Positions 10,952-59,920 of a stretch of 64,000 nt of DNA are shown in pieces. The notes beneath the pieces are model-generated. The model was not told the origin of the DNA. It did not search any database and saw nothing but the letters and a program-made list of their open reading frames with translations. The stretch spans positions 18,724,001-18,788,000 of the forward strand of contig OX597832.1 of the NCBI GenBank assembly GCA_951406725.2, given 5' to 3'. A program made the translations under genes and the position numbers. Origin of the DNA: Octopus vulgaris. Its lineage: Eukaryota. Positions within the stretch are counted from its first letter, which is position 1. Every line of letters begins with the position of its first letter.

Positions 10952-11365
10952 GGCGGAGAGCTGGCAGAATCGTTAGCCCGCCAGGCGAAATGATTAGCGG
11001 TATTTATTCTGCTGCTACGTTCTGAGTTCAAATTCCGCCGAGGTCAACTTTGGCTTTCATCATTTTGGGGTCGATTAAATAAGTACCATTTACGCACTTG
11101 GATCAATATAATCGACTTAATCTGTTTGTCTGTCCTTGTTTGTCCCCTCTGTGTTTAGCCCCTTGTGGCTAGTAAAGAAATAGGTATTTCGTCTGCCGTT
11201 ACGTTCTGAGTTCAAATTCCGTCGAGGTCGATTTTGCTTTCATTCTTTTGGGATCTATTAAATAAGAACCAGTTACGCATTGGGGGCGATATAATCAACT
11301 TAATCCGTTTGTCTGTCCTCGTTTTTCCTCTCTGTGTTTAGCCCCTTTTGGGGAGTAAAGAATCA
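10952..11365 (+). mobile_element. SINE family A, body duplicated (period about 184 bp); 12-bp target-site duplication
   Basis: Head ggcggagagctggcagaatcg; re-entry aaagaaata|ggtatttcgtc at 11183; gtaatgttatat at 10934-45 and 11366-77. Confidence 0.88.
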
Positions 11366-12790: not shown

Positions 12791-12894
12791 GTATATACAA
12801 ATGCTGTGCTGATAAGTTAACTCATAAGTTGAGATCTTGTATATAACATAAGCGTAGACAGAATAACTATCAAGATTAAACAAGAAAATAGATC

Positions 12895-13367
12895 AAAGGC
12901 TAAGTCGATCTAGGTGGAATTTGAACTCAGAACGTAACGGCAGATGAAATGCCTATTTCTTTACTACCCACAAAGGGCTAAACACAGAGAGGGCAAACAA
13001 AGACAAACAAGCGGATTAAGTCGACTACATCGACACCAGTGCGTAACTGGTACTTATTTAATCAACCTCGAAAGGATGAAAGGCAAAGTCGACCTCGGCG
13101 GAATTTAAACTCAGAACGTAACGGCAGTTGAAATGCCTATTTCTTTATTACCCACAAGGGTCTAAACACAGAGAGGACAAACAAGGACAATCAAGCGGAT
13201 TAAGTCGATTATATCGACCCCAGTGCGTAACTGGTACTTATTTAATCGACCCCGAAAGGATGAAAGGCAAAGTCGACCTCGGCGGAATTTGAACTCAGAA
13301 CGTAACGGCAGACGAAATTCCGATAAGCATTGTGTCCGGCGTGCAAACGTTTCTGCTAGTTCACCAC
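12895..13367 (-). mobile_element. SINE family A, body re-iterated about 2.3 times
   Basis: Reverse-complement units with junctions gaaatgcctatttcttta at about 12946 and 13131. Confidence 0.87.
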
Positions 13368-39508: not shown

Positions 39509-39680
39509 TTCGTGTACGTATGTATATACGCACACATATATAAATTGTGTACCGTAATTTTGTGATCTAAGTTCATGTTAGATCTCAGTTCGAAAGCAAA
39601 TAGAAGGCAGAAAATATTTCCAAGATCATTTTGAAATCTACCACTGTACTCATCGCTTTTCTTTTCCCAAAATATATATA

Positions 39681-40093
39681 TTTCTTTACTACCCACAAGG
39701 GGCTAAACATAGAGGGGACGAACAAGGACAGATAAATGGATTAAGTCGATTATATCGACCCCAGTACGAAACTGGTACTTTATTTATCGACCCCGAAAGA
39801 ATGAAAGGCAAAGTCGACCTCGAAGGAATTTGAACTCAGAACTTAACGGCAGACGAAATACCTATTTCTTTACTACCCACAAGGGGCTAAACATAGAGGG
39901 GACAAACAAGGACAGACAAAGGGATTAAGTCGATTAAATCGACCCCAGTGCGAAGCTGGTACTTTATTTATCGACTCCGAAAGGATGAAAGGCAAAGTCG
40001 ACCTCGTCGGAATTTGAACTCAGAACGTAACGGCAGACGAACTACCACTAAGCATGAAGCCCGGCGCGCTAACGTTTCTGCCAGCTCGCCGCC
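39681..40093 (-). mobile_element. SINE family A, body duplicated (period 184 bp)
   Basis: tttctttactacccac at 39681 and 39865; head ctgccagctcgccgcc at about 40078-93. Confidence 0.9.
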
Positions 40094-45720: not shown

Positions 45721-46156
45721 AGGACCAGGCGTACACAAACACTCGCACGCTCACGCACACACACACTCACACACATATGTATATTTATGTATATGTATAT
45801 AACTACACCCTTATGTTCATGTATATACGTGTATGTGCGTGTGTATATGTATATGTAGATAGACAGACAGATAAATAGTTAGGTAGGAAGATAGATTAAT
45901 ATATATCTATCTAACTATCTATATATAATAGAAATATTAAAATTACTAAGTCTCTCTAAAAGAGAACAACGGCAGCGTTCCCGGAAAATAATAGTTATCA
46001 CCATACTAATATGGCATTCTTATAAAAATAAGAATAAAGCTGTCCGCTTATTAGCTCCATGAGGCCATCGCCTTAAGTTAGCTATTTGCTACACAAACTG
46101 TATCCATATAACCTTCGAACAAGGGAGGTCAGTCGCTCCACACTACTTGACCGGCA

Positions 46157-46197
46157 GCTACAGACGCGTTTCGGGGTATTGCCCCTTTTCAATGCAA
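46157..46197 (-). ncRNA. Second copy of the same hammerhead ribozyme, 5' arm of stem I truncated at the inversion junction
   Basis: Minus strand reads ttgca-TTGAAAA-GGGGcaataCCCC-GAAA-CGCG-TC-tgtagc. About 5 bp of stem I remain; predicted cleavage after C at 46163. Confidence 0.75.
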
Positions 46198-46508
46198 GTA
46201 GTGTGGAGCGACTGACCTCCCTTGTTCGAAGGTTATATGGATACAGTTTGTGTATCAAATAGCTAACTTAAGGCGATGGCCTCATGGAGCTAATAAGCGG
46301 ACAGCTTTATTCTTATTTTTATAAGAATGCCATATTAGTATGGCGATAACTATTATTTTCCGGGAACGCTGCCGTTGTTCTCTTTTAGAGAGACTTAGTA
46401 ATTTTAATATTTCTATTATTGAAAACAAGTGGATGTATTCCACCGAAGCTAGGTAAATAAAACCTTCGAACAGAGATTGTCAGAAGCGACACCTACTGGT
46501 CTGGCCAC

Positions 46509-46550
46509 GCTGCATTGAAAAGGGGCAATACCCCGAAACGCGTCTGTAGC
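46509..46550 (+). ncRNA. Minimal type I hammerhead ribozyme, U3-A8 core variant
   Basis: Stem I GCTGCA(46509-14)/TGTAGC(46545-50); core TTGAAAA (46515-21; CUGANGA with C3>U and G8>A); stem II GGGG-caata-CCCC (46522-34); GAAA (46535-38); palindromic stem III ACGCGT; GUC triplet with predicted cleavage after C46544. Confidence 0.85.
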
Positions 46551-46726
46551 TGCCGGTCAAGTAGTGTGGAGCGACTGACCTCCCTTGTTCGAAGGTTATA
46601 TGGATACAGTTTGTGTATCAAATAGCTAACTTAAGGCGATGGCCTCATGGAGCTAATAAGCGGACAGCTTTATTCTTATTTTTATAAGAATGCCATATTA
46701 GTATGGCGATAACTATTATCTATATA

Positions 46727-46815
<89 letters not shown>

Positions 46816-47963: not shown

Positions 47964-48432
47964 ACGGCGAGCTGGCAGAAACGTTAGCACGTCGGGCGAT
48001 ATGCTTAGCGGTATTTCGTCTGCCGCTACGTTCTGAGTTCAAATTCCGCCGAGGTCGACTTTACCTTTCATCCTTTCGGGGTCGATGAAATAAGTACCAG
48101 TTAAGCACAGGGTCGATATAATCGACTTAATCCCTTTGTCTGTCCTTGCTTGTCCCCTCTGTATTAAGCCCCTTGTGGGTAGTAAAGAAATAGGTATTTC
48201 GTCTGCCGTTACGTTCCGAGTTTAAATTCCATCGAGGTCGACTTTGCCTTTCATACTTTCGGAGTCGATAAATTAAGTACCAGTTACGCACTGGGATCGA
48301 TATAATCGAATTAATCCCTTTGTCTGTCCTTGTTTGCTCCTTGTGAGCAATAAAGACATAAGAAACGTTAGTGAGTCGGACGGAACGCCTAGCGGTATTT
48401 CGTCTTTCTTTACGTTCTGCGTTCAAATTCCG
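47964..48432 (+). mobile_element. SINE family A, re-iterated
   Basis: Head acggcgagctggcagaaacg; re-entries at about 48193 (ggtatttcgtc) and about 48361 (agaaacgttag). Confidence 0.88.
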
Positions 48433-59164: not shown

Positions 59165-59920
59165 GAGTTGGCAGAAAAGTTAGCACGACGGGCGAACAGC
59201 TCAGCGGTATTTCGTCTGCCGTTACGTTCTGAGTTCAAATTACGCCGAGGTCGACTTTGCCTTTCATCCTTTTGAGGTCGATAAATTAAGTACCAGTTAC
59301 GCACTGGAGTCGATATAATCGACTTATTCCGTTTGTCTCTCCTTGTTTGTCCTCTGTGTTTAGCCCCTTGTGGGCAGTAAAGAAATAGGTATTTTGTCTG
59401 CCGTCACGTTCTGAGTTCAAATTCCACCGAGGTCGACTTTGCCTTTCATCTTTTCGGGGTCTATAAATTAAGTACCAGTTACGTACTTGGATCGTTGTAA
59501 TCGACTTAATACTTTTGTCTGTCCTTGTTTGTCCCCTCTATGTTTAGCCCCTTGTTGGCAATAAAGAAATAAGAAACGTTAGTACGCCGGTCGAAATGCT
59601 TAGCGGTATTTCTTCTGCCGTTACGTTCTGAGTTCAAATTCCGCTGAGGTCGACTTTGCCTTTCATCCTTTCGGGTTCGATAAATTAAGTACCAGTTACG
59701 CAATGCGATCGATGTAATCGACTTAATGTCCTTGTTTGTCCTCTCTATGTTGAGCCCCTTCTGGGCAGTAAAGAAATAAGAATCGGTAAGCAGGTCGAGC
59801 AAAATGTATAACGGCATTTCATCGGTCATTTCAAGCTGCATTCAAATTATATTGAGGTCAACCTTGACCTTCATCATTTTCTGGGTCAATAAAGTAAGTA
59901 CCAGTTGAGCACTGAGGTCA
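59165..59920 (+). mobile_element. SINE family A multimer (about 4 re-iterated units, the last degenerate)
   Basis: Re-entries at about 59388 (ggtattttgtc), 59572 (agaaacgttag) and 59779 (agaatcggtaagc). Confidence 0.87.

Follow-up and report, generated by a model that had tools for sequence, protein, structure and literature searches.

The systems closest to the repeat described here are the animal non-LTR retrozymes, for which Penelope-like elements (PLEs) have been proposed as the likely mobiliser with a circle as the template (PMC7229834), and the PLEs themselves. Both the mobiliser and the circular template are hypotheses in that work and in a recent preprint on vertebrate retrozymes (bioRxiv 10.64898/2026.07.22.740005), which reports Xenopus retrozymes homologous to pLTRs and does not appear to sample any mollusc. 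PLE insertions show partial tandems, inverted truncated arms and a bias towards (TA)n, and carry a tail of 30–40 bp that is often present at one end only (PMC8557442). The tail of a Penelope element has been shown in vitro to lie between two internal reverse transcriptase (RT) start sites (PMC11167929).

Hammerhead motifs with a U3–A8 core pair are also in print. This pair occurs among natural hammerhead cores, with in vitro activity of such cores cited (PMC3088659), and about 1,300 Penelope-associated U3–A8 motifs have been described in Schistosoma (PMC4209133). The latter study describes canonical metazoan type I motifs, whose helices I and II measure 6 and 4 bp and whose helix III, short and palindromic, is not stable in a single molecule, and min-HHRs, with a long helix II, a short helix I, an extra base and no loop 3. 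A loop-1 U and the terminal A of loop 2 form a conserved, activating tertiary pair in hammerheads (PMC3064770). Published observations on the motifs of mobile elements tell against easy activity: cleavage rates of Penelope hammerheads are low (PMC4209133), eight of nine Xenopus retrozyme dimers were uncleaved in vitro and one was active (bioRxiv 10.64898/2026.07.22.740005), and the hammerhead of an anole element depends on protein and is dispensable for insertion in vitro (PMC11167929).

We analysed a stretch of 64,000 nt of Octopus vulgaris DNA (the window), which contains a type I hammerhead motif with a U3–A8 core at 46509–46550 on the plus strand. Read 5′ to 3′, the motif comprises the stem I 5′ strand GCUGCA (46509–46514); core nucleotides 3–9, U3-U4-G5-A6-A7-A8-A9 (UUGAAAA, 46515–46521); stem II, formed by GGGG (46522–46525) and CCCC (46531–46534) around the loop CAAUA; GAAA (46535–46538); the palindrome ACGCGU (46538–46543), which can form a 6-bp helix III only between two copies; C17 (46544), after which cleavage is predicted from the sequence, the descriptor and the dimer fold; and the stem I 3′ strand UGUAGC (46545–46550), which makes six pairs, one of them G–U, with the 5′ strand. 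The coordinates and our descriptor search thus bear out the first-pass annotation, which had reported all of these elements in this order. Three helices surround the core and stem I is the open one, as in a type I hammerhead, and the core has U4, G5, A6, N7, A9, G12, A13, A14, A15.1, U16.1 and H17 together with a Watson–Crick 3–8 pair; it departs from the strict C3/G8 consensus in having U3–A8 in place of C3–G8. The same annotation had called the ribozyme minimal and implied that the U3–A8 core was new. Neither description can be kept: the core swap had been published, and helices of 6 bp, 4 bp and a short palindrome are those of the canonical metazoan class in PMC4209133, there being no extra base between positions 9 and 10.1 and a 2-nt loop 3.

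To recover the motif, the descriptor had to accept C3–G8 or U3–A8. It returned two matches in the window, the motif itself and, on the minus strand, a 5′-clipped copy whose core is at 46192; when the entire window was locally dinucleotide-shuffled 300 times, two loose and no strict matches were obtained. The motif is not a chance string. Rfam reported no hammerhead at the gathering score (0 matches), nor was one present among 16 weak matches, so the point that standard searches overlook it holds. The same is true genome-wide of a strict CUGANGA search. Among motifs with an ACAUGU palindrome, searches recovered 1,746 with U3–A8 (control, 12) and 416 with C3–G8 (control, 7), and with the ACGCGU stem the strict C3–G8 form gave one match, which is unrelated. 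Strict CUGANGA searches therefore miss most hammerheads of the young families in the octopus genome.

The annotation had not recorded that the motif belongs to a mobile unit of 363 nt present in high copy number. In the window the full unit occupies 46357–46719 (plus strand; 41.6% GC, longest ATG frame 38 codons, no tRNA). A 150-nt imperfect rod (46455–46604), supported by the fold and by compensatory changes between lineages, prolongs stem I. The first 63 nt of the unit as placed here (46357–46419) constitute a tail lying between two preferred 3′ ends, both of which end in CTATTAT. The insertion totals 795 nt and consists of two arms placed head to head and adjoining a (TA)n microsatellite at 46717–46778, the likely insertion target. 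The plus arm (46195–46719) is a 162-nt partial unit followed by one full unit and has a no-tail 3′ end, after which the (TA)n begins. The minus arm (45925–46196) is inverted and 5′-truncated, measures 272 nt, terminates with the tail and bears a second hammerhead copy (46157–46196, minus strand) that lacks the first 2 nt of stem I. No frame encoding RT plus a GIY-YIG endonuclease lies within or beside the unit, which is thus not an autonomous PLE.

The window copy has one hammerhead per strand and no same-strand partner, and its stem I bulge (loop 1, 46506–46508) reads C-A-C where the family has U-R-C. This variant is private to it (1 of 119 aligned copies); a loop-1 U is present in 117 of the 119, and loop 2 terminates in A, a correspondence with the known tertiary pair at the level of sequence. 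With one hammerhead per strand and an altered loop-1 U, the window copy is probably a dead-end insertion, and the loop-1 C and missing partner also make it a poor construct for a cleavage test. If transcribed, its arms would be expected to form a near-perfect RNA duplex of 225 bp (45925–46419), and about a thousand such inverted insertions are possible editing or small-RNA substrates. We rejected the idea that the inverted arm hides the hammerhead in a duplex, as the fold of the whole insertion gives it no support. Another short repeat, with a period of 182–184 nt, is also present in the window as tandem pairs at 10999–11362, 12891–13318, 39679–40046, 48010–48345 and 59206–59571.

The family is very young and has thousands of near-identical copies. 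Exact genomic matches number 892 for a 30-nt core sequence and 2,405 for the 3′ 26-mer, compared with none for the reversed control of either. Across 50 loci (the 30 best and 20 further ones), nearly all full units are 96–100% identical and lie head to tail in arrays, each containing between one and about eight units, with a period of 362–363 nt. No common flank or ORF adjoins the unit in these loci (1.5–3 kb flanks). At least two same-strand cores occur in 12 of 42 loci that were not chosen for the core, an arrangement the window copy does not share. The unit therefore has the sequence features by which non-LTR retrozymes are recognised, namely a length of about 150–400 nt, a GC content under 45%, no ORF and hammerheads in consecutive units. 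Arrays are internally homogeneous: 109 lineage variants are present in all copies of an insertion, 27 in one and 10 in some, and 4 of 167 private variants are found in every copy of their insertion. This homogeneity is compatible with copying from a circle and equally with homogeneous source arrays.

We compared the motif across four lineages: A, to which the window copy belongs; B, about 86% identical; D, 76–86%; and an old lineage, C, whose period is close to 325 nt and in which no resemblance to A could be detected beyond the motif. The B and C copies were gathered by homology from query copies found with the U3–A8 pattern, and the D copies mostly with that pattern directly. Between the majority letters of A (73 rows) and B (46 rows, including 6–8 A-like rows below the 93% cut), the motif differs at 2 of 42 positions, position 7 and a G–U pair that becomes A–U, and the flanking sequence differs at 18 of 108, two compensatory pairs among them (Fisher p = 0.06). 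Applied to 13 selected copies of A, B and D, RNAalifold gave 44 rod pairs, 6 of them with double changes. In lineage C, represented by 39 rows of decayed copies of which two duplicate one place, both stems are rewritten yet paired (stem II is GCCU/AGGC), and the core is largely retained (U3 in 35 rows, U4 in 38, G5 in 27, A6 in 35, A8 in 34 and A9 in 33); the 3–8 pair is U3–A8 in 31 of 39 rows and C3–G8 in one. The lineage C copies (L142–L171) are 67–79% identical to their query, and this may be an independent retrozyme.

Over the lineages and an autonomous element described below, only the catalytically free position 7 varies (A, C, U or G according to lineage), and G5, A6, G12–A15.1, U16.1 and a non-G at position 17 are kept. 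The helix III palindrome is ACAUGU in lineage D and in the autonomous element. The retained core and the compensatory stem changes indicate that structure and core were under selection in the source elements. The first-pass annotation had argued for selection from the core swap itself. The selection stands on the conservation of core and structure across lineages, and loss of the core or of stem pairing in other copies, which would have told against it, was not seen. U3–A8 itself is common to all four lineages and the autonomous element and so is not a change made within the family; it is ancestral to all four lineages. A C3–G8 progenitor was sought within the family and none was found, the lone match with the same palindrome being the unrelated one.

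Folding predicts that the RNA self-cleaves as a pair of units. The 42-mer alone folds modestly (z = −1.86) and the surrounding 150-nt hairpin strongly (z = −7.06). In the monomer fold U4 and G5 mispair with the palindrome, and forcing helix III within one molecule gives −6.2 rather than −11.8 kcal/mol, so that a stable intramolecular helix III is absent. When the 42-mer, the 61-mer or the 150-mer is co-folded with a second copy of itself, the active double hammerhead is the structure of minimum energy (−31.9 against −25.8 kcal/mol for two monomers in the case of the 42-mer), which agrees with the dimer-type stem III proposed earlier. For a transcript of two units, the minimum-energy fold is a different one, and the dimer-hammerhead fold costs 8.4 kcal/mol more. 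The ends of a cleaved 363-nt monomer are held together by stem I in the predicted fold, and a 363-nt circle folds with z = −6.4 relative to 100 shuffles. Contigs from four presumed-RNA runs span the unit with its end linked to its start, as would also be the case for tandem DNA, and no molecule ends are visible in them; A>G differences in these contigs were rejected as editing, since the sites coincide with differences in lineages B and D.

We examined the ends of the insertions in 219 arms from 124 loci, a pooled set chosen for containing the core or the hairpin. Their 3′ ends fall into two classes of nearly equal size, 106 with the tail and 103 without, with 10 others. The two preferred ends, at unit position 363 and 63 nt further, both follow CTATTAT. 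Inverted pairs combine one end of each kind: of 85 pairs, 75 are mixed, 3 are alike and 7 include an ‘other’ end, which is 75 of the 78 scorable pairs (p = 5 × 10−19). The pattern recurs in a set not chosen for the core (42 loci with 75 arms, taken from the initial 100 matches to the 3′ 26-mer), with 25 pairs mixed, 1 alike and 4 with an ‘other’ end. A TA run is present within 30 nt after 131 of 157 ends. An enzyme starting at the tail that merely trails another on one RNA is not required to explain the pairs, the tail arm being more than 63 nt longer in 6 of 24. Tail dimorphism, an inverted 5′-truncated arm, partial tandems and a microsatellite target are thus all present. These footprints match those described in PMC8557442 and PMC11167929, so the unit behaves like a non-autonomous substrate of Penelope enzymes, which substantiates the PLE link suggested by the first-pass annotation.

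A search for GIY-YIG endonucleases yielded 6,136 candidates, of which 150 were scored and 30 loci fetched, with 20 more fetched later (50 in total). A 781-codon frame containing RT, CX4CxxC and GIY-YIG is present in all 16 loci fetched for that frame length and is on average 99.0% identical (120 pairs); the RT and GIY-YIG domains were assigned by Pfam, and the linker, CX4CxxC, agrees with the motif given for Neptune/Nematis in PMC8557442, an assignment made from the motif and not from a tree. The family (L202–L217, for example L203:1842–4184, plus strand) has a period of about 4.7 kb and appears intact. Downstream of the frame, 15 of the 16 loci have a U3–A8 hammerhead with ACAUGU in a terminal repeat. 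The element ends at (TA)n, with 20 no-tail ends, 7 tail ends and 6 continuing (a few loci are counted twice), the tail closing in CTATTAT or a one-base variant; the sole inverted pair seen has one tail and one no-tail end. This Neptune-type family is a good candidate for an active element. No solved structure was found for its protein. Because the unit has no nucleotide homology to any sampled autonomous element (50 of the 6,136 candidates), and no terminal-repeat similarity to a partner was present in the sampled families, the 781-codon element is a candidate helper on the basis of shared features.

Other PLE families were considered as parents. An abundant family found beside the unit at L036 and L040 (48,950 candidates) was rejected: it has its own, different hammerhead, and it shares no more than a 13-nt string with the unit, in the opposite orientation. 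Position 6 of its terminal hammerhead-like motif (L040:3855–5960, L052–L080) is U, and A9 is followed by an additional base. At L036:2906–3085 an arm of the unit is joined directly to a 5′-truncated copy of this family, inside its endonuclease frame, which represents either a nested insertion or a template switch. No homology with lineage A, C or D was found in the further endonuclease families, from the 20 loci added later. By eye, one family at the 3′ ends of L271, L275–L278 and L265 has C at position 4 of the core and an AGUACU palindrome, and a second among those loci combines U3–A8 and the palindrome ACCGGU with a C at position 13; these core deviations hint at relaxed catalysis in other Penelope families of this genome.

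Taken together, we consider it probable that the unit is a young 363-nt non-LTR retrozyme copied in trans by a Neptune-type PLE RT–endonuclease, with an RNA predicted to cleave as a dimer after C46544. Multimeric transcripts would be processed into 363-nt monomers by dimeric hammerheads pairing through ACGCGU, in a cleavage that would be slow and perhaps aided by protein. The monomer ends would be held by stem I and possibly ligated into a circle. At a (TA)n tract the helper protein would nick each of the two strands, and reverse transcription would start internally at unit positions 363 and 63, one per strand. Synthesis would continue around or along its template up to a stall, in many cases at the rod's base, and microhomology would then allow the resulting pair of cDNAs to be joined head to head.

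A more specific account, which we hold as a tentative possibility, has the Penelope RT–endonuclease inserting the retrozyme from a hammerhead-cut and re-ligated circle by two-site priming and rolling copying, the 781-codon helper recognising structure rather than terminal sequence. One fixed internal start per strand would then produce the 75 of 78 pairs with one tail and one no-tail end, and an enzyme rolling round a circle would produce homogeneous arrays. The features shared by the 781-codon element and the unit are the U3–A8 core and the CTATTAT end motif.

The 5′ ends bear on whether the template is cut. The set gathered without regard to the core has no excess of 5′ ends at the cleavage site (1 of 75, with 1.9 expected), and an intact cleavage site is traversed by 35 of 74 arms; the template was therefore uncut or re-ligated. 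We had considered 5′ ends as genomic proof of cutting, from 9 of 163 in a core-biased set and later 12 of 219 (unit positions 186–194), and rejected them when the excess was gone from the unbiased sample. The 5′ ends are otherwise scattered, with 16 of 75 at unit positions 225–241, where 3.5 are expected; this interval, picked post hoc, is the rod's 3′ base. A nearly identical inversion junction, joining unit positions of about 201–202 with 228–233, recurs at the independent loci L224, L226 and L243, pointing to microhomology hot spots in the rod.

These results give some room to a less likely explanation in which insertion is of the same Penelope type and the hammerhead no longer cuts in vivo, being kept as a dimerisation or protein-binding fold, with arrays that arise by linear read-through of tandem loci. 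The missing 5′-end excess and the frequent read-through in the unbiased sample agree with it, as do the inactive monomer fold, the unfavourable dimer fold in tandem context, the dispensability of the anole hammerhead for insertion in vitro (PMC11167929) and the several core deviations in other Penelope families of the genome. Against a fold kept for binding alone, it is exactly the free position 7 that varies, and the catalytic nucleotides are kept in four lineages and the autonomous element; the loop-1 U and terminal loop-2 A that form the tertiary pair of PMC3064770 are kept in the family; and in the pooled set, core-biased as it is, the 12 of 219 5′ ends at 186–194 compare with 5.4 expected.

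It is improbable that the unit is instead the orphaned pLTR of an autonomous Penelope element that our sampling did not reach, with its copies being heavily 5′-truncated insertions. The homology of Xenopus retrozymes to pLTRs (bioRxiv 10.64898/2026.07.22.740005) provides a precedent, Penelope copies are mostly truncated, and the 50 loci fetched cover a small part of the 6,136 endonuclease candidates. Yet arms of up to 2,000 nt consist purely of head-to-tail units, none of 50 loci has a common upstream sequence or frame within its 1.5–3 kb flanks, and at L036 and L040, the pair of loci where a Penelope frame lies close by, that frame is part of the other, abundant family, which has a hammerhead of its own.

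LINE twin priming likewise produces inverted 5′ arms, and the motif is not recognised by Rfam, but LINE-type machinery or DNA-level satellite amplification, with a hammerhead-like string as a passenger or by chance, is very improbable and already largely refuted by the end structure. Against it stand two fixed internal 3′ ends, the one-of-each asymmetry, the lack of poly(A), small dispersed arrays at (TA)n, no strict match in 300 shuffles and compensatory conservation.

The value of the locus lies in its setting, a very young retrozyme family with Penelope-specific footprints in a genome that also contains a young, intact Penelope element; specialists will be interested in the footprints and the candidate helper rather than in the core swap. 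A Penelope protein has already been studied in an in vitro system (PMC11167929), so the retrozyme and the 781-codon element form a pair with which the questions of mobiliser and template become directly testable. If copying is indeed from a circle, the family would be both a natural record of, and a test system for, Penelope-driven retrozyme insertion. Our search of the literature, as distinct from Repbase, Dfam and the supplement of PMC7229834, found no published cephalopod retrozyme or description of the 363-nt family, and the main text of a 2026 octopus repeat annotation (PMC13282606) makes no mention of ribozymes.

On its sequence features, the octopus unit belongs to the non-LTR retrozyme or non-autonomous Penelope kind. 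Like the animal non-LTR retrozymes described in PMC7229834, such as the mussel repeats of 350–390 bp, it is an ORF-less tandem repeat whose GC content is below 45%; each unit has a single type I hammerhead with 6-bp, 4-bp and short palindromic helices, and the repeat is dispersed as dimers to multimers. It differs from them in its U3–A8 core and in the 150-nt rod that prolongs stem I, and a circular form of its RNA is a prediction; inverted arms, (TA)n targets and tail ends go unmentioned in the main text of that study. With the Cercyon elements of Schistosoma (PMC4209133) it shares the U3–A8 covariation, the type I topology, a dimer-dependent helix III and the tie to Penelope. The min-HHRs of Cercyon have a helix II of 7–8 bp, a helix I of 4–5 bp and an extra base after A9, and are mostly single and heterogeneous, whereas the octopus motif has canonical helices, no extra base and a place in a young, non-coding tandem unit.

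Neptune and Poseidon PLEs (PMC8557442; PMC11167929) share with the unit partial tandems, an inverted 5′-truncated arm, a tail at one end and microsatellite targets, and their two internal RT start sites match its two 3′ ends. Unlike them, the octopus unit has no ORF and its tail is 63 nt long rather than 30–40; and whereas the non-autonomous forms of Chlamys resemble their helpers at the 3′ end, no such homology was found for the octopus unit in the sampled families. The preprint on vertebrate retrozymes (bioRxiv 10.64898/2026.07.22.740005) reaches the same overall conclusion for units with means of 300–360 nt in several classes. There the argument is made from co-occurrence and pLTR homology, whereas in the octopus the link to PLEs comes from the footprints of insertion.
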